Assembly (NCBI GenBank): GCA_051453625.1
Contig: JBOZIK010000001.1
Coordinates: 49,955,277-49,994,260 of the forward strand
DNA: 38,984 nucleotides
Source: Welwitschia mirabilis
Taxonomy: Eukaryota
Direction: 5' to 3'
Shown: positions 5,219-38,984 of the stretch, in pieces
How the letters are laid out: every line of letters begins with the position of its first letter
Numbering within the stretch: the stretch's first letter is position 1
Notes under the pieces: generated by a model
The model's database searches: none
The model's input: only the letters and a program-made list of their open reading frames with translations
Told to the model about the DNA's origin: nothing
Position numbers and translations under genes: made by a program

Positions 5219-8158
5219 TGTAACCTAACATAACCCCTAGTGCCTAGGGGACTCCTTCGCCTTCTACCTTACTTATCTTCTTCTCCTTTTCCCTAATTCT
5301 TTTCCTTCCTTATTACCTTTCGCTCGCTTGCTCTTTCCTTCCTTCCCCTTTTCCCCTCATCTCCATCTTCTTTTAATCCCCTTATCCTTGAAGACCCTAT
5401 AAATCCATTCCCAAATTGAATTAAGGACTCTTTTATGTCTAAGGCATGAAAATGATGTTCCATTAACCTCCACTGCCTTTTGACATGGACTTTAGGCTCC
5501 CCTTAGATCTTGATCTTCCTTTGGCAATTAACCTTTAGGTCTCCTTATTATTCTCTTTTTCCCTTGCTTACTTTCTTCTCCTATCATTCTCTTTTTCTTT
5601 TCCTTTACTCTCTATTCTCTCCTCTCATCCTCTTCCTTCTTCTATTCACTCCTTTCCTTTACTTCGTCCTTTACCTTGTCCCCTTTTCAACACCTTTTCT
5701 CCCCTTTTCGTCCTATCTTTCCTTCTTCTTCCCACTTTTTCACCGTTATCCTTTTATCTTCCCCTCTTTTCCTTTATTTTATCCTCTTTTCTATTCCCTA
5801 TCTTCTCTTTCTTTTCTCTTCCTCTCCCTTCTCCCTACTTTTCTTACTACTTTTTCTAACTCACCAACTTCTCTGAATTCCACCCATTGTAATTTAAGCT
5901 TCTTCCACATCTTACGCATGGAAGATAAATCCCCCTCCTGCATAGAAGGACCCTTCTGCCTCTAGATAGTTATATGGGTCTTGAAAGCCCTCTAGACCCA
6001 CCTTTTTAGTCTCCNNNNNNNNNNNNNNNNNNNNNNNNNNNNNNNNNNNNNNNNNNNNNNNNNNNNNNNNNNNNNNNNNNNNNNNNNNNNNNNNNNNNNN
6101 NNNNNNNNNNNNNNTTCTATTCTATGTCTTGGATGAGGAAGATAAGTTTCCTACCCTTAAATATCACTTCTCCTAGCTCCTTAACCCTCTTAGTGGTTTT
6201 AGAGCCTCTTTAGATCCACTTTCTTAGCTCTCCTCACCATTCAATTCATTTTGACAATTAGGTAACCCCTTCATATTGATTCCCTTGCTCATCCTACCCT
6301 ATTTACTTTGTATTTCTTTCTTTTCTCTTATCTTTCCATCTTTCTACCCTTTCCTCACCCTTTTAACCCCTCTTTTCACCCCTTTTCTACTAAATCACCC
6401 TCCCAAACACCCATAAACTTTCATTCCATATGAATTTCATGCCCTAGGCATGCAATGCCATCTAATTTCACACCTTGAGTGTGGAATCCACCCCTCTTCC
6501 ATGCTTAGGATGTAGAAATTCTCTTTTCTCCTCTAAAAACTAAGGTTAAATAGCTCCTATACTTAGTTTTTATCTCTAGAAACCTTCAAAAATTAGCTCT
6601 TTTGACCTCTATCTCTTTCCCTTACCTCTCAATAGTTAAGAAACTCCTTTCCACTAGTTTCCTTTGATATTATCAATTCTCAATTCTTACTATGGGTTTA
6701 TCATTGCCTTTTCATTCACCTTTGATGAATCATCACCAATAATCCATCAACTTAGAGTTTAGAAGAGTTATAAGGTTGTATCAAATCCTTAGGGTGCACT
6801 AGAATCAAGTGAGCTTTCCCATGAAACAACACTCTGGGGTGAGTACTAGCTTGATACCTAGGGAGAGGATGACTGATCTAGTAAGATGATCCTTCTTGAT
6901 ATCATTACGGACTAGCTAATGACTACCATAATATCGATGACCTCAATCATGTCGATCACTATCATTAGGCCTACAACAATAGCCATAGTCNNNNNNNNNN
7001 ACTTCCTGTCAATGATAGTAATAGAATCCACTTCCATCTGATGACAATGATCTTACTGAGAACTATTAGCATTAATCCTCCATGTTAGTCTGCTAAACTC
7101 ATTACTAATCTGGAGCTATCTATAAAGACCTCCATGGCTTATTGTCAGTCCACTTCCCTTTCATACTTCCATGTTAGTTTTTCTTTCTTGCTCTTAGCCC
7201 AAAGGGATAGCCTCTTCCTTTTACTTCCCCTTCTAAGTCCTTGCATTTGGAGATCCTCTTTATATTCTCTTTTAGTTTCTAATGCCACCTCCATCCCAGT
7301 GATCTTTTTATGAACTAGAGGTGTCCTATCTTCCTTTTCCTATTTCCTAGATGGTTAAATTACTTTATAATAGCTCTTACTCTAAGTCAGTAGGTAGATG
7401 AATCCTCCCCTTACTGATAGAAGAATCTAGTAAACACATGAAGACATATCTTATGATTCCCTTTTATATTTATATTTCTCTATCTATTTACTATTTACTG
7501 TTCATTTTTCTCATGTTACTTTGTACTCCTTTCCCCACTAACCCAACCTTTTCCCTTTAATGCCCATAAGGGAAACACTATATAATTATCTCCCGAATGG
7601 GAAGAAAGAAAAAGAGGAGGTATGGGTTTTAATTTCAATAATAAAGAAAAGTTATTTTTCACATCTTTAGAATTGTATTTGCCAAGTATCTTAGGAGTAG
7701 TAAACAAGGGACCTGATTTCAAATAGCTTCTTTACACAAAGGAGAAACCAAGCATTATATTTTTAGGAGGAATACCATCCTTTACATGAGCCCTTCTTCT
7801 TTAGTTAAACCTCATCATATTTCACTTTCTTAGCCTAGGGAGGAGACCTATTATAACCTCTAATTCCANNNNNNNNNNNNNNNNNNNNNNNNNNNNNNNN
7901 NNNNNNNNNNNNNNNNNNNNNNNNNNNNNNNNNNNNNNNNNNNNNNNNNNNNNNNNNNNNNNNNNNNNNNNNNNNNNNNNNNNNNNNNNNNNNNNNNNNN
8001 NNNNNNNNNNNNNNNNNNNNNNNNNNNNNNNNNNNNNNNNNNNNNNNNNNNNNNNNNNNNNNNNNNNNNNNNNACCTTAAGTGGAATTGTTTACAAGTAC
8101 CTAATTTCGAGCTACCCTCTAAAACAAGTCTAGGACCTTACCCTAGAAAGTAAGTTAT
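5219..8158 (+). mobile_element. Candidate nested ~2.9-kb insertion (solo-LTR-like, TGTAAC start as in Tekay/Del) inside the 5' UTR of element 1
   Basis: Begins tgtaac, ends aagttat, flanked by identical gttgt (5214-5218 and 8159-8163). Removing it leaves a continuous tttaaatttgttgtcttttcc. Internal TATA-like ctataaag near 7120. The 3' terminus is not a clean CA. Confidence 0.4.
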
Positions 8159-19021: not shown

Positions 19022-20607
19022 TTAATTTTATTGGAAGAAGATGTTATAATATTAGATGCTTGATTTTATCTAAATGCTTAAAACAAAAAACATGAATGAT
19101 TGTGAGTAAGGTAAAAATTGGAAAGAAAAAAGGAGGGATATTGAGTTACTTTTATGATTATTTTCTTTTATTTGTNNNNNNNNNNNNNNNNNNNNNNNNN
19201 NNNNNNNNNNNNNNNNNNNNNNNNNNNNNNNNNNNNNNNNNNNNNNNNNNNNNNNNNNNNNNNNNNNNNNNNNNNNNNNNNNNNNNNNNNNNNNNNNNNN
19301 NNNNNNNNNNNNNNNNNNNNNNNNNNNNNNNNNNNNNNNNNNNNNNNNNNNNNNNNNNNNNNNNNNNNNNNNNNNNNNNNNNNNNNNNNNNNNNNNNNNN
19401 NNNNNNNNNNNNNNNNNNNNNNNNNNNNNNNNNNNNNNNNNNNNNNNNNNNNNNNNNNNNNNNNNNNNNNNNNNNNNNNNNNNNNNNNNNNNNNNNNNNN
19501 NNNNNNNNNNNNNNNNNNNNNNNNNNNNNNNNNNNNNNNNNNNNNGGAAAGGAAAAGGGGGAATCTTGAGTTACTTTTATGATTATTTTCTTTCACTTGT
19601 GAACTTGAAAATTTGCTTACTATTAATGTTATTGGAAGAAGATGTTATAACATTAGATGATTGATTTGATCTAAATGCTTAAAACAAAAAACATTAATGA
19701 TTGTAAGAAAGGTAAAAATTGGAAAGGAAAAGGGGGAATCTTGAGTTACTTTTATGATTATTTTCTTTCACTTGTGAACTTGAAAATTTGCTTACTANNN
19801 NNNNNNNNNNNNNNNNNNNNNNNNNNNNNNNNNNNNNNNNNNNNNNNNNNNNNNNNNNNNNNNNNNNNNNNNNNNNNNNNNNNNNNNNNNNNNNNNNNNN
19901 NNNNNNNNNNNNNNNNNNNNNNNNNNNNNNNNNNNNNNNNNNNNNNNNNNNNNNNNNNNNNNNNNNNNNNNNNNNNNNNNNNNNNNNNNNNNNNNNNNNN
20001 NNNNNNNNNNNNNNNNNNNNNNNNNNNNNNNNNNNNNNNNNNNNNNNNNNNNNNNNNNNNNNNNNNNNNNNNNNNNNNNNNNNNNNNNNNNNNNNNNNNN
20101 NNNNNNNNNNNNNNNNNNNNNNNNNNNNNNNNNNNNNNNNNNNNNNNNNNNNNNNNNNNNNNNNNNNNNNNNNNNNNNNNNNNNNNNNNNNNNNNNNNNN
20201 NNNNNNNNNNNNNNNNNNNNNNNNNNNNNNNNNNNNNNNNNNNNNNNNNNNNNNNNNNNNNNNNNNNNNNNNNNNNNNNNNNNNNNNNNNNNNNNNNNNN
20301 NNNNNNNNNNNNNNNNNNNNNNNNNNNNNNNNNNNNNNNNNNNNNNNNNNNNNNNNNNNNNNNNNNNNNNNNNNNNNNNNNNNNNNNNNNNNNNNNNNNN
20401 NNNNNNNNNNNNNNNNNNNNNNNNNNNNNNNNNNNNNNNNNNNNNNNNNNNNNNNNNNNNNNNNNNNNNNNNNNNNNNNNNNNNNNNNNNNNNNNNNNNN
20501 NNNNNNNNNNNNNNNNNNNNNNNNNNNNNNNNNNNNNNAAAGGAGGGATATTGAGTTACTTTTATGATTATTTTCTTTTATTTGTGAACTTAAAAATTTG
20601 CTTACTA
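19022..20607 (+). repeat. 175-bp tandem repeat array, mostly collapsed into N gaps
   Basis: ggaaaggaaaagggggaatcttgag recurs at 19546 and 19721 (period 175). Full unit 19623-19797; partial units 19022-19175, 19546-19622 and 20539-20607. Confidence 0.85.
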
Positions 20608-21610
20608 ATTTTTAGACTTTTGTAGATTTACTTAGAGGATATCTTATTTGTCTGGTATTGTGGTCTATTTGAATAAACATAAAATGCATAAAAATTTCAA
20701 TAAAGTGGTTACTATCCTAATAATCTTTGTATTCTATGTTCATAGATGTTTGGATTAGGTTTTATTTTCATTTTCATGTAGTTCAATTAAAAGATCCAAT
20801 CATAATGATTTTTTATCATGCAGTGCAAATTTTCATCCCACTTGCATTCTATTCATTCATAGCTGAATTTAGCTTGTAACATCAAAAATCGCTATTTTAG
20901 TTGCTACATCATATCATATAACTTTACTCATAGAATTCTAAGATAGCCAGTGAAACTGCTAGTCCTTCTTGATGCCACCATCTAATTTTTAGTTTTTACC
21001 TTCAAACTCTTCCATAACATCACCCATTTCATTCATAGTCTTCTTAAATTTTAAGTTTGTAATAAATTTTTTTAGAAAATGACTATAATCCATTTCTAAT
21101 TGTCACATTTAAGTTTCATTTTTACCTTCAATTACATTTTTCTCTTCTTTATAATAATCTTGATTTTTAGAATAAGTGATTGATTATTATTTCTAAGAGT
21201 GTTTTTATTTTTGCATTTTCTTATGTATTACATTGTACTATTTTTGAGTGTTTTTTACATGCCAGTTTAAAGTACTTACATTGTAGCTTTTTCTAAAGTT
21301 TTGAAATGCTTACATTAAAATTATTTTCTAGCTTAGACTATGAAAAGGCATGTAATGTAAATTTTCTTTTTAAAAATTTTGACTTATTCTTTAAATCATT
21401 TTTTTCTATCTTTTTAACTTTAAAAATAAAGTTTTTTTTTGATTAGGACGTATTCCTGATGTTGATGCCTTATTTGTTAAAAGTTGATTAAATTTTGAAA
21501 AATGTTAAATCATTTTGATATTAAATATTTTACTTAGATAATTTCTTCATGTTAATCATTTCTTTAATAATATTTTGCTAAGAGACTAGTAAAAATCTAG
21601 CTAAAAGGTG

Positions 21611-27529: not shown

Positions 27530-29121
27530 TATTAATAAATATAATTTTGATTATTCCACTTGTTAAATATTTTATATTAATATGTAGATAGGTCAGTATC
27601 AAAAGGATCAGATATTAATTGGCCTTAGATCATGATGGATGTTCAAAAACAACATCTCACAAAAAGGATTAATTAATAAAATACAAAATTAATTATTTAA
27701 AAACATTTGGGAAATTGAAGACATATTAATTAAAAAAATCTAGAAAATTAAAGACATCTCAAATGTACTTGAAATCAAGTCACAGACTAAAATATGACTA
27801 CCATATTCAAGATAATTGAGCTGAAAGTTGAACCTGACATAAATAAAGATGTTTGCATATTTAAAGATGTCTATACTGAGATGAAATAGGTAACAAAGTT
27901 AGTTTTAATTTTAACTAATATCTTGTATTTCAAATAAGCTATGAAATTGTACATCACGAATTCATGATTATGGAGATCTAAAGATACTATAAAGCCAAAT
28001 TCATTAAAATTTGGATAAGATGACTAAAGATGTCTACAAGATGAAGACATCTAGTTATAAATAGGCATCTATGAAAGTAAAGACATCTTGAATCAGATTT
28101 CACATTGATTAAAACTAAAATTATGTGCTTGATGCCTAGAAGTTGCTTATCCATTACATGATGATTACAAAATTAAACGACTACCTTTTAAGCTTAAACA
28201 ANNNNNNNNNNNNNNNNNNNNNNNNNNNNNNNNNNNNNNNNNNNNNNNNNNNNNNNNNNNNNNNNNNNNNNNNNNNNNNNNNNNNNNNNNNNNNNNNNNN
28301 NAGATCTTTTTAAATTGTATAAAAGCTTGATAACATGAAAAAAATAAAAAATGTTTAGCATTACAATGAATACTCAGCTTCTAAATCTTGGCATACAATA
28401 ATCAAATAAAAAATAAAGAACACACAAGTATAATAAACTTCTCATGAAGAATCAAAGGCATCATTTACAAGGAGCTTGTATTGCTTTCATAATTTGATCT
28501 TGGATCTACATTGCTATTATCTTCATTTATATCATGATGTAATAATAATATCAAGGCCCTTCAATATTCATCAAAAAAATATATTCAGACTTATTATTAT
28601 ATTGTACTTTTAGTTTTACATTATTGACTATCTTATTATTGAATATTGTTGTAAGTCTATTCTTGAATATCAAATACTTTATAAGGCAAATCTTGTAGGG
28701 GTGTGCATTTGATATTGTATTTTTAGCTACTTATTTAATGTAGGATCATTGATGAGCCAAAAAACCATTATTTCCTTGTAAGAAAGAGAGTGCTACCTTG
28801 TAAGGAGACTCTTCGATATTATAAAGGTTCATGGTGTGCCTATGAAAACTAGTATTTTCTTGAGGGGGAGAGAGTGCTATCTTATGAAGAGACTCCCATT
28901 TATTGAAAGGTTGATGATACATTAAAAAATCACTATTTTCTTATACATCAAGAATATCCAGAGGTGGGATTAAAAGCTACCCTCTACATGTGGATGTACC
29001 AAGTTTGGGAAACCACGTTATTTTGTAAGGTGTTTTTATTATACATTTTTATTCTGATATTGATTTAATATTTATATGATGGAACTCATTTACCCCTCCC
29101 TTATAAGTTCAATGATCCTTA
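27530..29121 (+). repeat. 5' LTR of the SIRE element
   Basis: Collinear with 33789-35126 (ttaataaatataattttgattattccact vs ttgataaatctagttttgatgattccact); ends just before the PBS; contains ~82-bp internal repeats at 28762-28942. Confidence 0.85.
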
Positions 29122-29123
29122 AG

Positions 29124-29135
29124 TGGTATCAGGGA
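29124..29135 (+). promoter_or_regulatory. Primer-binding site for initiator tRNA-Met
   Basis: TGGTATCAGGGA versus the consensus TGGTATCAGAGC. Confidence 0.85.
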
Positions 29136-29173
29136 AGGTACTCACAAAAATGATTAACTTTCTTAAGTACACA

Positions 29174-32100
29174 ATGGAAGGGGTGCCATCTATTAGACCT
29201 CTCTTCTTCAAATGGATAGACTACACCTATAGAAAGATGAGGATACAAATGTTCTTACATTTTTTTGAGTTTTAGATTTAGAGAAATGAAAATGAAGGAT
29301 ACATAGAAATCACAATAGGTACTAAAAAAATAAAATGAATAAACTTATCCTACTTTCATGGCCGTGACACTTTCTTAAGAAGAAAAAGCTGAGATAAGAG
29401 AAGAAGATGAATAAGATAGTGAAGACAACAAAGGTTTGAATCTTTAAGAAAGAGATGAACTAATTTTTGAAGAGTGTATTAAACTAGAAAAGTATGTATT
29501 AAGATGAAAAATTTACTTCATATTCATGAATAATCCTATGAATAAGAAAATAATATTAGCAATAAATTATCTTCAGAAAACTCAGCTCTTAAAATTAAGG
29601 ATAGTAAACTAACATGTGAATTAAAGTTTATAAGATAGGAACTATTTGATTCAAGAATGATTAATGAAAAATTCACCCAAGAAAAGAAGACATTAAATAT
29701 CATGCTTGGATAATGTAGATGATCAAATGACAAAAGTGGCATGAGACATAGTAAAGCTACAATAAGTACTTTAGCCTTCTTATTTGACAAATGGAACTAA
29801 AACCCAAGATTATTATCTATTATTATTATCATAATAGAGGTCATTATCAATGAATTAGAACTTGGAGTAGTGAAGAAGCATGCATGATGTGTTGACATTA
29901 GATGCTCTAGGAGATAAATCAAGAAAAATTTGGGTACTAAATCCAAAATTAACTCTTTTAGCTCAAATAGCACTTGGAGTAGTGAAGAGACATGCATGGT
30001 ATGTTGACATTAGATGCCCTAGATACATGACTAAAGGCAAATCAAGAAAAATTTGGGTACCAAAATCAAAAGCNNNNNNNNNNCATGGTATGCTGAAATG
30101 AGATGCTCTAAACACATGACTAGAGATAAATCTAGCTTCACCACCTTAGTGGAAGAAGCTAAAAGAGTTTTAACTTTTAGAGATAACACAAAAGAATCAA
30201 TCAAAGGCATTAGTATCATTGGAGGAGGTAATTTAATATAGGTAAAAGATGTATTCTTTAGAAGCTTTGAAACATAATCTTTTAAGTGTAAGTTAACTCT
30301 ATGATGTAAAGTTTTTTGTTATGTTTACAAAAAATGGTTGTGATATAAGAGAATAAAATACTACCAAAATCTTATTTTTTGGTGTAAGGAAATTAAATTT
30401 TCATATCATCACCTTGCAAGATATATATAATAATGGAATCAAGTGTTTTATTAGCAAAATAGATGAACTATAGCTATGGCATAGGAAGATTGATTCTATA
30501 AATAAATATATTTTCAAAATATTATCTATAAAGGAAAGGATAAGAGGACTTTCTAAGTTTAAAAGCATTGATAATTAGATTGTAAAGCTTGTTAAAAAGA
30601 AAAGTAGTCAAAGGTAAATTTTGATAAGAAAAATATTATTTCTATTGAATGTTCATTAGATCTCTTACATTTAGACATTATTGATTCTTCATCTATAGAA
30701 ATCTTAGATAAAAAAGATATTACTTAATACTTGTAGATGATTTTTCTTGTTTTACATGGATAGCCTTCCTTGCTTATAAGGATGAATCCTTGAATACCAT
30801 TTCTAAGTTGTCCATCAGGTTATAAAACTAAAAGGGATATAGGATTAAAATGATAAGAATTGATAATGGGATCAAATTTAAAAATGCAAAATTTAGAGAA
30901 TTTAAATGGAGTGATTAAAGGAAAGAATAGAATTCTCAACAAAATTAGTAGGATAATGATGCATGATAAAAATGTACCAGATCATTTTTGGGTAAAAGCA
31001 GATAATATAGCATGCTATGTTTCTAATAAAGTTTTGGTAAGAAGATTCACTTTAGAGACTTCATATGAGTTATGGTCAGGTAGAAAAATTTTTTCAATTA
31101 CTTTTATATCTTTAAATTAAAATTCTTAATTTTAAATGAAAAGGATAAGTTAAAGAAGTTTAATTCAAAAGTTAATGAAGGAATTTTTCTAGAATATTTT
31201 ATAGTCAATAAGGCTTATAAGATGTACAATAATAAAACCTATGTAGTTGGGTAAACTATAAATGTTAAAATAAATAATATTGAGTTAACTCCTATAAATG
31301 TGAAAGAGGATTATACTCCTATGTAGATCCTCTAGACATTTTTAAATTTAATCTCATGGTGATAAAGAAAAAGAAGAAGAAATAGAAAATCAAAATCCAT
31401 CAATCATGATCAAAATAAAAAAGAGTTACTCTATTAGAAACATTATAAGAAGTCCTTATAGAGGCATTCAAACTAGAAGTCATATTAGAGACTTTTATAG
31501 CTATACAACTTATGTCTCTCAACTTGAACCTAAAACTTTCAAAGAAACTAAAAGTAATGAAAATTAGATGGTTTCTATGCAAGAATAGCTTAATCAATTT
31601 GAAAGATGCAATGTTTAAGAGCTTACTCCAAGATCTTCTAATAGATCAGTCATTGGCACCAAGTGGGTTTTCAAAAATAAAATAGATGAACATGGCAATG
31701 TTATTAAAAACAAAGAAAGATTAGTGACAAAAAGTTACAATCAATAAGTAGAAATTAACTTTGAAGAAACCTTTGCTCCTATGGATCATATGGAATTAAT
31801 AAGAATGCTTATAGCCTTTGTGTGCATGATAGGTTCAAATTTTATCAAATGGATGTCAAAAGTGATTTTATAAATGGAAATATTCAACAAGAAGTATATG
31901 ATAAAAAATCAAATAAATTCATTAACTCATAAAAATCTAATCATGTCTACAAATTAAAGAAGATTTTCTAGGGTCTTAAACAAGCTCTAAGAGCTTGGTA
32001 TGAAAAACTCTTAGGTTATTTAATTGAAAACCATTTTAAAAGAGGTACTTTAGATGTGATATTATTCATTAGAAATAAATATTTTATTATTTTTTAAATT

Positions 32101-32929
32101 TATGTAGATGATATTGTTTTTTGGTGCTACTAATGAATCATCGTATAAGAAATTTGCTAAGATTATGTAGGATGAGTTTTAAATGCATTCCATAAGAGAA
32201 ATAAGCAACTTTTGGGGACTTCAAGTCATGCAACATAAGCAACATACATTTATTTCATAAGCTAAATATGTTAAAAATTATAAGAAGGTGGATCAAAAGC
32301 TATACAGAGTATGACTATTAGTCTATTATATCTTAAAGATAATCGACTTGATATTATGTTAAGTATAGGAATTTTTATACATTATCAAAATAATCCTAGG
32401 AAATCACATCTCATAACTATCAAAAAATGTTTTTATTACTTAAAGAATACTACTAATTGGGGTCTTTGATACTCAAAGCACTCCTCCCTTGATCTAGTAG
32501 GGTATTATGATGTAGATTGGACTCAATGCAAAGATGATAAAATAAGTGTAGCTTTTTGCTTGGATAATGCCTAATTTCTTAGAGTAGTAAAAAAACAAAA
32601 TTCAATCACTCTATTAACAACTAAGGTTAGGTATATTTCCACTATAAGTTATAAAAAATTAAAAGATTTTGATGTTGTAAAACATTGAAAGATTTTGGTC
32701 TTTCCATGGATAGCATTCCTATTTACTGTAATAACAAGAGTGTAATCAATATATCCAAAAATCCTATACAATACTTTAGAACTAAGCACATTTAGATATG
32801 ATATCACTTTCTTAGAGAACATGTTCAAAACAAAAATATTATAATGCAATACATCAGTACAGATGATCAACTTGTAGATGTGTTTACAAAACCTCTAAGT
32901 ACTAAAAGATATGTAAAGTTATGTAGAAA
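29174..32929 (+). pseudogene. gag-pol: Copia gag-pol polyprotein pseudogene (many stops, frameshifts and deletions)
   Basis: gag MEGVPSIRPLFFKWIDYTYRKMRIQMFL; protease WYVDIRCPRYMT (~WYLDSGCSRHMTG); integrase LWHRK, LDLLHLDI, VPDHFWVKADNIACYVSNKVLVR; RT VIGTKWVFKNKIDEHGNVIKNKERLV, QMDVKS, GLKQALRAWYEKL, YVDDI; RNase H ISKNP..RTKHI, DDQLVDVFTKPL. Confidence 0.95.
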
Positions 32930-33447
32930 NNNNNNNNNNNNNNNNNNNNNNNNNNNNNNNNNNNNNNNNNNNNNNNNNNNNATTCTCAACTCCACATTAT
33001 ATTTATCTTATGAACTAAAATAGCAATTACATTTAGTTAGTATAGTTATAGTTAAATTATGTATGTGATATTTATCTTTTTTACACTATGATTGTTATGC
33101 CTACTACAATCATAGATATTTTCAAAAAATCTAGAACTTTTACTATAGATGTCTTCATATTTGTAGACGTCTCTGAGATAGACATCTTAAAGAATTATAG
33201 ACATCTTTATTTATAATGTTACCAAAAAATGATTAGCAAAACATTAGCTAGTACCTCTAAAGACACAAACTCAAGGGAAGTGCCAGACTCCTAAGAAGGC
33301 ATACATGTAGGGGGAGTATTATTCTTGAATCTATATTACTTTTCTATACTATTCAAAAAGGGAAATAAGTTTTTGTGAATTGGTGGCATTAATGGTATTC
33401 AGGGGGGTAAATTTTTATAATGAATAATGCTCTGTTTTTCATGAATG

Positions 33448-33450
<3 letters not shown>

Positions 33451-33478
<28 letters not shown>
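33451..33478. repeat. (TA)n microsatellite running into a gap
   Basis: 14 visible TA units. Confidence 0.95.
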
Positions 33479-33788
33479 NNNNNNNNNNNNNNNNNACATG
33501 ATATATTCTATGCTCTAATGTATTTTTCTTAATAAATTATCAATTATTCTTGTGTCTTTAGCTAAACTTCTTAATTAGATCTTTAACATGTCTTAATATA
33601 TTTTTTTAAGTGATATATCTATGTATCTTTATCTAATTTCAAGTGGTCTTTATCATGCTTTTTCAATATCATTACATACTTTGGTTATATTCATTTATAT
33701 GGATTATAAATGTCTAATTTTAATTGATTAGATGAGATTATACTAATAAGATTTACCAAGTTTTGAACATCATAAAAAACCAGGAGAT

Positions 33789-35126
33789 CATTGATAAATC
33801 TAGTTTTGATGATTCCACTTATCAAATATTTTATGTCAGCATATAGATAGATTAATACCAAAAGCAACAGATATTGATTGATCTTAGACCATGATAGATC
33901 TTTAAAGATAACATCTCATAAAAAGGATTAGTTAATAAAATACAATCAATTATTTGAAGACATCTAGGAAATTAAAGATGTCTTGATTGAATATGTCTAA
34001 AAAATTGAAGATGCCTTAGATGTACTAGAAATCAAGTCACATACTAAAAGATGACTATCATATTTAAGATGATTGAGCTGAATGTTGAAATTGATATAAA
34101 TGAAGAAATCTACATATTTGAAGATGTCCATACTGAGTCAAAATAAGTAATAAATTCAATTTAATTTTTGACTAACATCTTGTATTTTAGGTGATTTATG
34201 AACTTGTACATCACAGATTCATGATTACAAAGGTTTAAGTGTATTATAAAGCCAAATTCATTAAAATATAGATAAGAGGATTGAAGTATTATATAAGGTA
34301 AATATGTTTGATTGTTAGTAGACACCTACAAAAGTAAAGATGTATTAAACCAAAGTTCATGTTAATTAAAATCGAAGTTACAAACCCCACATTTAGATAT
34401 TGCCTATCCATTACATGGTGATTGCAAAGTTAAATGGAAAACTTTTAAGCTCAAATAACTAGATCTTCTTTAACCATATAAAATCCCAACATGATCAAAA
34501 AAAGAAAAAACTTTTGATACTATAATGAATATTTAGCTTCTGAACCTTGGCATACAATAATCATATCAAGAACAAAGAACACATGAGTGTGAGAAACATC
34601 TCATAAAGAATTAAAGGCATAATTTGCAAGGAACTTGAATTACTTTCATCATTTGATTTTGGATCTACATTGTTGTTATATTCATTCATACTTGTGATGA
34701 CAAAAATAATACTAAGTATCTTAAATCTTTATCAAAGCATATTTTCAGGTTTTTTGTTGTATTGTACTTTTGGTTTTACATTGTGGACTATCTTACTATT
34801 GAATATTGTTATAAGTTCATTCTTGAATATTAACCACTTTGTAAGGAAACCATTGTAGGGGTGTGTATTTGAGATTATGCTTTTCAGTACTTATTTGATG
34901 TAAGGTTATTAATGAAGCAGAAAACTATTATTCCCTTATGAGGGAGAGAGTGTGCCTTATGAGAAGACTTTTACTATTGTAAAGGTTTTTGATTTATCTC
35001 TAAAAACCATTATTCCCTTGAGGAGGAGACATTGATGTCTTGCGAGAAGACTCTTATTTATTGTAAGCTTGGTGGTATGCTAGTAAAACACTATTTTCTT
35101 GTAGGTTAAGAATATCTAGAGGTGTG
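33789..35126 (+). repeat. 3' LTR of the SIRE element, truncated by a later insertion
   Basis: Similarity to the 5' LTR stops after aagaatatctagaggtg (cf. 28950-28966); the last ~155 bp of U5 are absent from the window. Confidence 0.85.
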
Positions 35127-35601
35127 TGTTGTGATGTTTATTTTTGCAATCCTTTATGTCTTACTTAATCCTATTAGTTACAAATAGATATATTGTAAAA
35201 TACAATACAATAGTATAGATGGAGTGATCCAAATGTTGTAAATTCATTAAAAAATGAAGAATGAGAATTGATTTTCAAAGAAATATTGTATTATTTTAAA
35301 ATCTAAGAATAATGCAAGAAATAATGTAATGAAACACACTTATGAAAATGCAAATGTAACCTATTCTAGATGAACACCTATCTAATTATCAAATTGACTT
35401 ATTAAGAAGATTGACCTTGTATAACCTAAATTAGTTAGGAAAACTATTACTAACTAAGACTAACTTAATCTATTAAGTAAGTCAAATAGAATGTAATGCA
35501 AGTTAATCTAAAAATGCACTTAAACTAATATCGTTAACCTTAAAAAGTGAAATTTTCACTGAGTTAGATATAATATAAACTATAAGGGATATGTAAAGAA
35601 T
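35127..35601 (-). mobile_element. 3' end of a minus-strand LTR (family of 1867-2241), itself split by the CACTA element and probably resuming at 38883
   Basis: The reverse complement ends aataaacatcacaaca and is collinear with 1867-2241. Confidence 0.55.
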
Positions 35602-35619
35602 TGCTACAAGAAATATGAT

Positions 35620-35850
35620 CTTTTAAGGCATTTCTACAATGCCTTAAAGATATATAACACAAAACGCTTCAAAATCCNNNNNNNNNNNNNNNNNNNNNNT
35701 TTTAAAACATTTCTAAGGCGTTTCGATATAAATGTCTTAAAATTCCTTTTGAGGCATTTTTAAAAGAAATGCCTCACTATAAAAGTGTTTTCAAGGCATT
35801 TAGCTCAAATGCCTTTTTGAGGCATTTATCCAATAAATTCCTTAAAAAGA
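35620..35850. repeat. Left CACTA subterminal repeat cluster
   Basis: ttttaaggcattt, aatgccttaaa, taaggcgttt, gaggcatttt, aaatgcctca, caaggcattt in both orientations. Confidence 0.85.
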
Positions 35851-36397
35851 CATCACATGGAAAAAAAAATTTACAAATCCAGATAATTTTTAGAAGATAA
35901 AATTATAAATCCATTACTAATTTTTAAAGAACAATGTTTATAGTTATTTGTGCATATCAATAACAAACAAGTCATTACTTGTTTCACTTCATTAGAAAAG
36001 CTTATCTCTAACATATTTGCTAGGGCTTTAATACATGATTCAGTAGAAGAAATTGTAGCTTTACCATCTTTAGTACAAATAAGATAATAATAAATTGTAA
36101 GGATTTTCTGTAANNNNNNNNNNNNNNNNNNNNNNNNNNNNNNNNNNNNNNNNNNNNNNNNNNNNNNNNNNNNNNNNNNNNNNNNNNNNNNNNNNNNNNN
36201 NNNNNNNNNNNNNNNNNNNNNNNNNNNNNNNNNNNNNNNNNNNNNNNNNNNNNNNNNNNNNNNNNNNNNNNNNNNNNNNNNNNNNNNNNNNNNNNNNNNN
36301 NNNNNNNNNNNNNNNNNNNNNNNNNNNNNNNNNNNNNNNNNNNNNNNNNNNNNNNNNNNNNNNNNNNNNNNNNNNNNNNNNNNNNNNNNNNNNNNTA

Positions 36398-36664
36398 GAG
36401 CTAGAGAGAGGATCGAAGATCAAATTTATAATGGATTTGTTAAACCTATGTGAAATAAGTGGGGGAAAACTATTAGCATTCAGTCAAGTACTGAGGCCAT
36501 TGGATTGAGCTTTTTAGATTACATGGTAGTACTATCTTAGAGGCAAGGGAATAGAGTAACACTAATTGAATAATTCAAACAAGTCAAAAGTTCTGTTTGC
36601 ATGAATTAAGACCTATGGAGAAGGAATTAACCTTACAATTACTAGCAGAGTGGTTCTTCTAGAT
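36398..36664 (+). pseudogene. DRD1: Captured fragment of a DRD1/CLSY-subfamily SNF2 chromatin remodeller (helicase C-terminal domain); closest recalled match is DRD1/CHR35
   Basis: ELERGSKIKFIMDLLNLCEISGGKLLAFSQVLRPLD / ELFRLHGSTILEARE* / LNNSNKSKVLFA*IKTYGEGINLTITSRVVLLD. Recalled plant DRD1 pattern: [31 protein letters not shown]...EVFVLTG....EQREW...FN.S.[28 protein letters not shown]. Two frameshifts, an internal deletion and stops. The 5' part is hidden in gap 36114-36395. Confidence 0.85.
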
Positions 36665-36669
36665 AATTA

Positions 36670-38075
36670 ATGCCTTGCAAAAGTTTAAATAAGGAACCTG
36701 GTTTCAACATGTTTTATTTTGTTAATCAGATCATCATCATTGGTATTGTAATTAGACGCCAACGTATATGTATGAGGTACCAATAGGACGCGAAGTGAGG
36801 GGGGTGCTACACTATGTTTGAACATCACCATGTTGTCCTTAAGGGTGAAGTGTTGTAAGTGAAAGCCACCAACCTATAGGGTTGCAAATGTAATGAATTC
36901 CTAACAATTTATTTGTCTTTCACCAAACATGAACCTGGGAAGTCTTTTCATTAGAGCCTTCTTCTATGCCTCTGACATGCATTTTTGATGATGATGTTTT
37001 TTTCAACTCGTCTTCTGATGATCAATTGTACCTTTGAAGCTCTATGCATTTCAACTCTGCCAAAATTCATGCGAAAAAATCTATAGAGGATAAATTAGAA
37101 GTCGTGCATGAAAAATGCCATGAAAAACTCATAAAACAACATTTTTGTTGCTTGAATGCCAAGCACATATGCCTTGTATCTTCCTATCAATTTTCTCAGT
37201 GCTAGAATCTGAATGCTGAAAATACTTACTGCTTTTGACATCTTTGGACTCTTGTAGCTCTCTCTCTTTCTCATAAAAGATCTTCTCATGGCATGTGGAC
37301 AACTCATAGAATAGATGGTAAAGGGCGATAGAGGACCTTACCAATGATCCCATTGCCACTGGCTTCACCAGACATATGGTTTTCTTCACCCTCACAAATT
37401 GTAACCTTCCCTCAAATCTTTTGAAACCTGAAGAGTTCACTTTTTATCAGGTCATGAAGCTATTCAATAGAGAATTTGAACTTTCACAGCAGCTTTAGTG
37501 AGGACTCTTTCATCCATGAATATGCTGTTGGACTTTACTTAGTTGTGCCAGGAATCATATCCAAAAGATATGCTAGGGTCAATAAGCTTAGATCTTTTCA
37601 TGATAATCCTAATACTATTGGACTTTCACTTAGCGTTCTTAGCGCCATCTTAGAGGTTACATTTTCCATTGAACTACCATTCAAGGGGTCCATGTCACTA
37701 GCATTTGAAGATAATATGAGCTTAAAGAACTTCATTAGTATATTTCTTAATTGAGTAGAGTTTTCCGACATTTACTAGTATACTTTACAGGGCATGGCGT
37801 TGATGGAAACTATCGACTGCGGCTCTATGAACGTCCTCGATAATGGGACTAATAGTTCGTTTTACCAGCTTTACCCCTTAACCAGAGCTTGTGCCTCCTT
37901 TGGATTTTGCTGTTTCTATAGGGAATTTATTATGTTTGAGAAAATGAGATTAAATCTCATTAAGGATAAGCTTGATCTAGTTTGAAGGTGAAGAAGCATT
38001 ATCTTCAATGAAAGCTTCTTGACGTGATTGCTAATCACATCTTGGTGCATATGATACATTTTTGGTTATTGTCAT
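36670..38075 (-). other. Unidentified GC-richer, coding-like cargo segment of the CACTA element
   Basis: Begins after the splice-acceptor-like tttcattatttgtttag (minus strand, ~38076). Long stop-poor stretches, e.g. KHNKFPIETAKSKGGTSSG*GVKLVKRTISPIIEDVHRAAVDSFHQRH and ORF 37129-37440. Retains CpGs unlike the flanks. No family recognised. Confidence 0.35.
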
Positions 38076-38214
38076 CTAAACAAATAATGAAATTCAGTAA
38101 TTTACAAAGAGGAAAGGTAGCTTAAAAACTTTAAAAACTATAATAAAAAGCTTAGAATTCCTTACAAAGAGTTAATTCATACATATGTTTTTTGGTGAGA
38201 GGGAAGGTTCTTAC

Positions 38215-38425
38215 CAANNNNNNNNNNNNNNNNNNNNNNNNNNNNNNNNNNNNNNNNNNNNNNNNNNNNNNNNNNNNNNNNNNNNNNNNNNNNNNNNNNN
38301 NNNNNNNNNNNNNNNNNTCCTTCATCATGAAAATAGCCACTAAAATGGCTACCCCCTCTACCACGACTATCTCTATTGCCACCATGGTTTCCTCTGAAAC
38401 CTCCTCGTCATCTTGATGGCCTCAT
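38215..38425 (-). pseudogene. GAR1: Captured first coding exon of a GAR1-like gene (H/ACA snoRNP subunit 1, N-terminal RGG domain)
   Basis: From the ATG at 38425: MRPSR*RGGFRGNHGGNRDSRGRGGSHFSGYFHDEG, resembling plant GAR1 MRPPRGGGGFRG...GRGGG..GGGFRDEGPP.EVVE. After the 100-N gap the sequence ttg|gtaag gives a donor site at 38214. An upstream acceptor tttacag| lies at 38451. Confidence 0.7.
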
Positions 38426-38619
38426 TGCCTTTATTAAGCTGAAGCACTATCTGTAAATACATTGTAGGATTTCAAACAGGTTTTTAGTAGGGTTTTTAAC
38501 AGAAGACATGCATTATTTTTTTAACAAAAGAAAAGACACACATTAGGTTTTCAATAGGGTTACATTTCTAACAAAGGAAAATACGAAGATGTGCATTAGT
38601 TTTATTGCATTTTTTTAAG

Positions 38620-38865
38620 TATGATTTTAAGGCATTTGGCTTTTAAACGTCTTATAAAATGGAAAAAAACTTTTTAAAAGCTCAACCTATTTAAGGCGTT
38701 CTTTTCAAAAATGTGGTAAAAATAATTCAAAGAGGGGTTTTAAGGCATTTTTCAATAAAAATGCCTTAAAAGAATTTCTATCAACTCTTTCATGGTGTTT
38801 ATTGAAATAAATGCCTTAAAATACTCTATACTTAAGGCGCTGATTTAAATAAACGCCTTAAAATC
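38620..38865. repeat. Right CACTA subterminal repeat cluster
   Basis: ttttaaggcattt, tttaaggcgtt, aaatgccttaaaa (x2), ttaaggcgc, aaacgccttaaaa. Confidence 0.85.
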
Positions 38866-38984
38866 CTATATTTCTAGTATTGTATTAAAGAAATAAAAGA
38901 GAAACAGAGTTTGTATTAAGTCAACTAGCATTTAAGTTATAAAGTAGCTACACCTCAATGGAGGATGCACAACCCAACACTAAG

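Follow-up and report, generated by a model that had tools for sequence, protein, structure and literature searches.

A probable Pack-CACTA transposon, now decayed, with cargo from unrelated genes in Welwitschia mirabilis

Positions 35602-38882 of a 39-kb stretch of Welwitschia mirabilis DNA raise the question of whether pieces of several genes travelled together as one transposon, and whether they were joined into one expressed gene. The stretch, called the window here, covers 38,984 nucleotides (nt) of contig JBOZIK010000001.1, and the interval within it measures 3281 nt, 404 of them N. An earlier note on this DNA had taken the interval for a Pack-CACTA, a non-autonomous CACTA-type element with non-transposon cargo, whose GAR1-like exon, coding-like central sequence and inverted DRD1-like fragment might form a chimeric spliced transcription unit. 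The first part of that proposal agrees with the terminal and subterminal repeats, the lack of a transposase domain and the SNF2 cargo described below, and the interval is probably one old, non-autonomous CACTA (En/Spm-type) DNA transposon of the Pack type. As such, it is a decayed Pack-CACTA with at least two unrelated cargo pieces. The second part fares poorly. It is likely that the present copy is inert and without a protein product, and that, as far as the data go, it gives no spliced chimeric RNA.

The ends carry the assignment to the CACTA group. The terminal inverted repeats at 35605-35633 and 38851-38879 are 29 nt long and 79% complementary in alignment. The left end, TGCTACAAGAAAT from 35602, and the right end, CAATACTAGAAAT read inwards from 38882, each agree at 10 of 13 positions with the En1 terminal repeat CACTACAAGAAAA, as listed in Table 2 of PMC3193017. 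The CACTA pentamer itself agrees at three of five positions on the left, where it reads TGCTA, and at four of five on the right, where it reads CAATA. All nine exact matches of the subterminal motif AAGGCRTTT in the window fall inside the element ends, on both strands and in direct and inverted orientation, with four at 35625-35815 and five at 38629-38859. Those on the left reach about 215 nt inwards from the element end, and those on the right about 255 nt. By chance 0.78 matches are expected in the window, and none of 100 shuffles reaches nine.

No transposase accompanies these ends, as the earlier note had also reported. Pfam searches of the 14 open reading frames (ORFs) of the element (E<=10) give nothing above threshold, and 13 of the 14 match no family at all. 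The six read-through frames of 36668-38076 give a single sub-threshold match, to DUF5902 (E 0.066), and no family of the Transposase_21/24 type appears at E<=10 in either set. The N runs within the element (22 nt at 35678-35699, 282 nt at 36114-36395 and 100 nt at 38218-38317) are too short to hide a transposase coding sequence. Since the interior contains no transposase-type Pfam family, the internal segments are not ordinary TnpA or ORF2 relics.

The interior does resemble a non-transposon host protein-coding gene, the feature by which Pack-TYPE elements are recognised, and it does so in an SNF2 fragment. The plus frame from 36398 reads ELERGSKIKFIMDLLNLCEISGGKLLAFSQ...SKVLFA*IKTYGEGINLTITSRVVLLDN* and has eight stops in 95 codons. 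Used as a phmmer query with X at the stops, this read-through matches 29 of 1.84 billion representative proteins at E<=1e-3, all of them plant-type SNF2 proteins; the best E is 8.9e-10, with none below 1e-10. For 25 of the 29 the best-aligned stretch stops at query residue 90-97; two others extend to 104-108 and the remaining two (30% identity) to 156-158. All 12 matches that were tested have SNF2-rel_dom and Helicase_C domains, and the alignment falls at the start of Helicase_C. Names were looked up for 18 clusters among the matches, all from land plants where a taxon is given. Five of these have CHROMATIN REMODELING 35(-like) members, from Tarenaya, Bidens, Linum, Coffea and Capsicum; one is named "Chromatin remodeling", two are generic SNF2, one is RAD54-named, eight are hypothetical and one is unnamed. 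CHR35 is the same protein as DRD1 according to a table in PMC6458923.

In the other direction, 31 SNF2 proteins searched against the element by tblastn align only on the plus strand, from 36398 to 36664 or 36682, at 33-43% identity and with E down to 2e-12. A Taxus protein aligned by BLASTP is identical at 44 of 103 residues (about 43%), with a gap of about 18 residues that appears to be a deletion. By sequence similarity, these searches confirm the stretch as a predicted helicase-C fragment of a DRD1/CHR35-type remodeller, which bears out the DRD1-like label given to it earlier. Like the CHROMATIN REMODELING 35(-like) proteins among the Rad54-like SNF2 ATPases, it has the helicase-C start. 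Unlike those ATPases, it has only about 95 visible codons, interrupted by the stops and the deletion, it lacks the SNF2 N-lobe, motif VI and the tail, and it is not a gene. The fragment may extend upstream into the N run 36114-36395. With tblastn at E up to 200, SNF2 similarity at 35870-36113 or beyond 36682 is only noise. A terminal exon at 35870-36113 as part of the SNF2 piece was thus rejected for want of tblastn similarity there, and a suspicion that the SNF2 tail reaches about 37130 was dropped, because outside 36398-36682 there is only loose tblastn noise.

The second gene-derived piece, unrelated to the first, is an Arg/Gly-rich (RGG) exon fragment on the minus strand, so that the SNF2 fragment on the plus strand is indeed inverted relative to it. 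On the minus strand the exon reads MRPSR, TGA, RGGFRGNHGGNRDSRGRGGSHFSGYFHDEG, 100 N and TTG|gtaaga at 38215|38214, and it would be 211 nt long if the N run is truly 100 nt. The ATG and the splice-like motifs ('tttacag' ending at 38451, 'gtaag' from 38214 and 'tttgtttag' ending at 38076) are where the earlier note had placed them; the exon itself is broken by the TGA at codon 6 and by the run of N. Plant GAR1 proteins begin with an ATG that leads straight into an Arg/Gly-rich domain, and plant fibrillarins and other RGG proteins are alike in this. Like the first exon of GAR1, a protein of the H/ACA small nucleolar ribonucleoprotein, the element exon starts with ATG followed by an Arg/Gly-rich domain. 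Unlike in GAR1, the diagnostic Gar1 core would either fall in the 100 N or be absent. The 36 visible codons have no Pfam match and no phmmer match in the PDB, and Pfam finds no Gar1 domain downstream in any frame of 36668-38076. The exon is GAR1-like by resemblance only, and GAR1 is a candidate identity. The sequence upstream of the ATG (38426-38600) is probably a captured 5' flank or untranslated region. It contains AAACCCTA 63 nt upstream of the ATG, a motif with two matches in the window against 1.68 expected, which is not significant.

Between the two pieces lies the 1.4-kb centre, which had been described as coding-like on the minus strand. It has no intact ORF, and the minus-strand frames of 36939-37985 contain 20, 21 and 30 stops in about 349 codons each. 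The sole stop-poor frame is on the plus strand, with nine stops in 349 codons (three in the last 176); the other plus frames have 26 and 36. In 5000 shuffles, a minimum over three frames of <=8 stops occurs with a frequency of 0.0012. The centre has no Pfam family in six frames and no PDB match, and its plus frame has no word-based match among proteins of 257-821 and 822-2345 amino acids (aa). A 98-aa plus ORF has no metagenome relative. In the ESM Atlas this ORF, the longest open piece of the plus frame, has a recognition of 1244 and no usable match, and its protein-likeness is low, so it may not be a real protein. The centre could be a decayed ORF on the strand of the SNF2 fragment, or non-coding genic DNA. 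It is no visible continuation of either flanking gene piece.

Left of the SNF2 fragment, the minus-strand frame at 35874-36113 has matches to UME (E=0.012) and FH3 (E=0.014), both under the Pfam cut-offs. The ESM Atlas places it near KAP/Arm clusters (scores 0.92-0.95), with a count of shared features, 147-160, that stays under the guide of 170. It has no PDB match, and an AlphaFold single-sequence fold is uninformative, with a predicted local distance difference test (pLDDT) score of 49. An armadillo/HEAT-type repeat fragment is a weak lead for what this frame may encode.

Contigs of two DNA runs, X1 (organism A) and X5 (organism B), were placed on 34000-38984, and their summed depth serves as a rough proxy for repetition, not as a copy count. 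The depth is about 1000-1900 on the ends in both runs (about 1580 at 35503-35669 in X1), 30-270 on 35837-36671, 0-7 on 36672-37673, 38-73 on 38008-38341 and about 10 on 38342-38675. The high-depth ends in both runs point to a family with more than one copy sharing these termini. Repeated ends around a low-copy interior are the pattern that PMC8903248 describes for Pack-TYPE elements. The higher depth of the SNF2 region than of the centre indicates several near-identical copies of it in the genome, and the depth over the intron-like piece points to further copies of it elsewhere at >=95% identity. At the inner margin of the left terminus, a 32-nt unit occurs twice (81% matches) at 35867-35930; by contig depth, this region is about 40-fold more repeated than the element centre. 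Shorter relatives in the family are indicated by several contigs in which the left subterminal region passes directly into the right one. Contigs from other copies match through 38879 and then read GT(G/A), which fits a canonical family end ...TAGTG with a G-to-T change at 38880 in the present copy. No second copy or related ORF was found elsewhere in the 39-kb window. A literature search found no transposon paper with the inferred family end motif, nor any paper with a 6-residue N-terminal motif. The one metagenome locus with the palindromic subterminal motif was set aside as unrelated, since it is a 1.2-kb contig that appears to have prokaryote-like coding sequence, with the match in a short hairpin.

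The depths also bear on the number of donors, since they differ along the cargo (30-270 on the SNF2 part, 0-7 in the centre, 38-73 on the intron-like piece), which suggests separate histories. The earlier note had counted at least three donor loci; the pieces identified as gene-derived number two, unrelated to each other. It is conceivable that the whole run from the SNF2 piece through the filler to the RGG exon was captured as a single contiguous chromosomal segment, made up of two convergent neighbouring genes with intergenic or intronic DNA between them; the donor locus would then be one instead of three. The gene pieces point towards each other, an arrangement that neighbouring genes can have, and the filler has a genic GC content (0.37) and no protein match, so it could be intron or intergenic DNA. 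Neither gene runs into the filler, however: no second half of helicase-C and no SNF2 tail follow 36682, and all frames of 36668-38076 lack a Gar1 or any other Pfam domain. Capture from a single donor is therefore unlikely. Cargo from several loci is reported to be common in maize Pack-CACTAs (PMC8903248, PMC6379663).

That the two ends belong to one insertion is supported by contigs that run from flank to flank. In a contig of X1, position 35596 is followed directly by 38883. X5 has two such joints, one from 35596 to 38883 with CT inserted and one from 35595 to 38883. Against ...GTAA-AG-AAT-[element]-TAT-TAAAG in the window, the X5 contig with CT reads ...GTAA-CT-TAT..., so that, two substitutions aside, the joint resembles an empty site holding one 3-bp copy. 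With boundaries at 35602 and 38882 the candidate target-site duplication is imperfect, AAT on the left and TAT on the right agreeing at two of three positions. The flank-joining contigs favour these boundaries over 35604/38879, where the window has a perfect TTG/TTG. Since the joints from 35596 to 38883 occur under two species labels, the entire 3.29 kb acts as a single insertion with respect to its flank, and the claim that both inverted repeats are of one element stands. The interior is present in contigs of both species labels as well (shares 0.76 and 0.45). The insertion therefore probably predates the split of the two labels, or the labels are very close.

The same joints are difficult to reconcile with two independent short family members, or solo ends, flanking pseudogene-rich DNA that never moved as a unit. 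This account draws on the many short members of the family seen as left-right subterminal joints, on the mutation of both terminal pentamers, on the imperfect duplication and on tandem local insertions, which PMC6379663 and PMC8903248 present as typical of Pack-CACTA. A fusion of two elements should be marked by relic inner termini, but local alignment of the ends with the interior on both strands finds none with z>3. Two separate insertions are quite improbable, and one Pack-CACTA insertion remains the preferred reading.

Expression was followed in two RNA-seq runs of the same species label, X14 (DNBSEQ) and X17 (oligo-dT Illumina), about one quarter of each being read. Six reads of X14 and 17 of X17 were placed, all only partly on the stretch. 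Most of them lie on the 31 nt at 38467-38497, with T>C at 38485. These reads come from another transcript, because the foreign sequence that borders the match to the left and right is the same in X14 as in X17. The reads with a foreign flank at the 38467 edge number six in X14 and 15 in X17. X17 also has a trace mean depth of 0.44 in the bin 38843-38984, which holds the last 40 nt of the element and the right flank, and two reads cross that end. No RNA joint on 35602-38882 is present in either run. An index of sequencing runs likewise lists no RNA run as containing this DNA. These data argue against an abundant transcript of the element in the X14 and X17 samples.

The cargo could still be read, as the earlier note had done, as a chimeric spliced minus-strand unit, in which the RGG exon, a 139-nt intron, a 1.4-kb exon, the antisense SNF2 fragment and a terminal exon at 35870-36113 form a new mobile gene or long non-coding RNA. 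Splice-like motifs do lie at the places named, but GT/AG pairs with T-rich tracts turn up often in DNA with a GC content near 30%. An ATG with an upstream flank is present, but TGA follows at codon 6, and splicing from 38215 to 38075 gives D-DNNQKCIICTKM-stop, with the stop 13 codons past the junction. The minus frame at 35874-36113 is open for 80 codons, but the minus-strand frames of the centre are closed by the 20-30 stops given above. Hybrid mRNAs driven by promoters of Pack-CACTA passengers are known from Arabidopsis, as PMC6379663 describes. Here, the two runs give no genuine RNA reads, with neither a joint nor depth on the element apart from the foreign 31-nt match, and a chimeric unit is very unlikely.

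Among the factors of RNA-directed DNA methylation, a pathway that silences transposons, is the remodeller DRD1. It is barely credible that copies of the DRD1-type fragment serve as a source of small RNAs directed at the DRD1/CLSY-type gene of the host, or as a decoy, so that the capture was not accidental and the Pack-CACTA family spreads a counter-silencing device, and the divergence of the fragment argues against any such activity at present.

Several points weigh against a single Pack-CACTA with this cargo. An exact CACTA is present at neither end of this copy, the two duplication copies differ, and the alternative boundaries have the perfect duplication. The shorter arm of the flank-joining contigs measures just 26-27 nt, and the flanking DNA is repetitive in its own right (depth 1500-6600), so that these contigs may be paralogues of a repeated flank and not the allelic empty site. 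The element reads N at 404 of its 3281 positions. The SNF2 fragment itself has no match in Pfam, in the PDB or in the word-based search against longer proteins, and it is assigned by phmmer, tblastn and BLASTP, at 33-47% identity. The GAR1 label rests on a 36-codon Arg/Gly-rich start that no tool assigned. Two RNA runs also leave room for rare, tissue-specific or small RNA expression.

The features of the element are collected in Table 1.

Table 1. Features of the candidate Pack-CACTA element and its immediate flanks, in window coordinates
Feature	Coordinates	Strand	Remarks
Left copy of the candidate 3-bp target-site duplication (AAT)	35599-35601		Adjoins the first inverted-repeat base
Left terminus	35602-35850	+	Begins with inverted repeat TGCTACAAGAAAT; AAGGCRTTT-type subterminal repeats; 22-nt N run 35678-35699
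80-codon open frame running into N gap	35874-36113	-	Moderately repeated, depth 75-274
N run	36114-36395		282 nt; one X1 DNA contig continues from 36113 into the run
Predicted DRD1/CHR35-type SNF2 ATPase pseudogene fragment	36398-36682	+	First half of helicase-C, up to the '...SRVVLLD' motif
Low-copy filler	36683-38075		GC 0.37 against about 0.25-0.28 around it; depth 0-7 at 36672-37673, 6-73 towards 38075
Putative intron of the earlier note	38076-38214	-	139 nt, AT-rich; GT at 38214-38213, AG at 38077-38076
ATG-initiated Arg/Gly-rich (RGG) exon fragment	38215-38425	-	ATG at 38425; TGA at codon 6 (38410-38408); N at 38218-38317
Upstream of the ATG, probably captured 5' flank or untranslated region	38426-38600	-	AAACCCTA motif at 38488-38495; 31 nt at 38467-38497 common to an unrelated transcript
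Right terminus	38601-38882	+	Subterminal repeats; inverted repeat end ...ATTTCTAGTATTG (reverse complement CAATACTAGAAAT)
Right copy of the candidate 3-bp target-site duplication (TAT)	38883-38885		Flank-to-flank joints all resume exactly at 38883

The 39-kb window is AT-rich, CpG-poor DNA of plant type, with a GC content of 0.28 (N excluded) and a CpG observed/expected ratio of 0.14. It contains 24 N runs, nine of exactly 100 nt, four of exactly 10 nt and the rest of 3-836 nt. This pattern resembles scaffold gaps, and the lengths of features that span N, the RGG exon included, are uncertain. A decayed Ty1/copia retroelement lies at 28441-35124 on the plus strand, with RVT_2 matches (E 3.5e-19 and 2.7e-15) in two frames of 29-33.5 kb and weak Pol_BBD and SH3_retrovirus matches. 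Its long terminal repeat (LTR)-like pair, 28441-28966 and 34600-35124, is 77% identical, and the CACTA element begins about 480 nt past the right LTR. At 19070-20625 the same short unit flanks each of two large N runs (370 and 741 nt), with a translation ...GGILSYFYDYFL...VNLKICLL; the assembly seems to have failed to resolve a repeat array here. The region 5500-5970 is a CT-rich low-complexity tract with a GC skew of -0.60, tandem units of 36-41 nt and long spurious open frames. Near-identical pairs of frames, on the minus and plus strands, at 13261-13512/14064-14321 (about 800 nt apart) and 11510-11758/11635-11919 (about 130-400 nt apart) indicate local duplications. No Rfam family was found on the window.

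Like En/Spm (En1) of maize, Tpn1, Tdc1 and Tam1, the element has a candidate CACTACAAGAAA-type terminal repeat, with the 10 of 13 agreement to En1 at each end (PMC3193017, Table 2). It also shares with them short subterminal repeats that occur in both orientations and lie in the outer 250 nt or so at either end. Unlike them, it has no transposase or TnpA coding sequence and is only 3.3 kb long, and its subterminal AAGGCRTTT presumably differs from the En/Spm 12-mer.

The closest likeness is to the Pack-CACTAs of Arabidopsis (Pack-CACTA1/2, Catoni et al. 2019, PMC6379663) and of a survey of maize and rice (Gisby and Catoni 2022, PMC8903248). These are non-autonomous elements with CACTA-type ends, a 3-bp duplication (here a candidate one, and imperfect), an interior of chromosomal gene fragments with exons and introns, and an interior less repeated than the ends. 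The same sources describe CACTA elements rich in gene fragments, with 3-bp duplications, multi-locus cargo and occasional hybrid transcripts. Unlike those elements, the present copy is decayed, with mutated pentamers, stops and an SNF2 piece at 33-47% identity to any database protein. Its CpG observed/expected ratio of 0.37 fits long-term methylation. The copy is presumably immobile now, because both of its terminal pentamers are mutated.

By analogy with En/Spm, the ends and their AAGGCRTTT repeats would be bound in trans by the transposase of the family and a TnpA-like protein. Between them the element would carry 2.7 kb of non-transposon cargo, namely the SNF2 pseudogene on the plus strand, the RGG first-exon fragment with its 5' flank on the minus strand, the 1.4-kb filler and possibly the armadillo-like fragment. 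This cargo may have been gained in an earlier round of transposition or repair, from co-mobilised neighbouring insertions, or by aberrant excision followed by repair. Co-mobilisation of neighbouring insertions and aberrant excision with repair are the routes put forward in the Pack-CACTA literature (PMC6379663, PMC8903248).

Elements of the Pack-CACTA kind have already been described, and the present copy is an additional example, dead and to all appearance silent, that adds no new principle. Pack-type transposons shuffle exons and can seed new genes, and this element is a further multi-fragment example in another plant lineage. The main practical benefit is to annotation, which should mask both the RGG exon and the SNF2 piece as cargo of a transposon and call neither a gene. 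The one point of potential interest is that a transposon would have carried and multiplied a fragment of a silencing-pathway gene.

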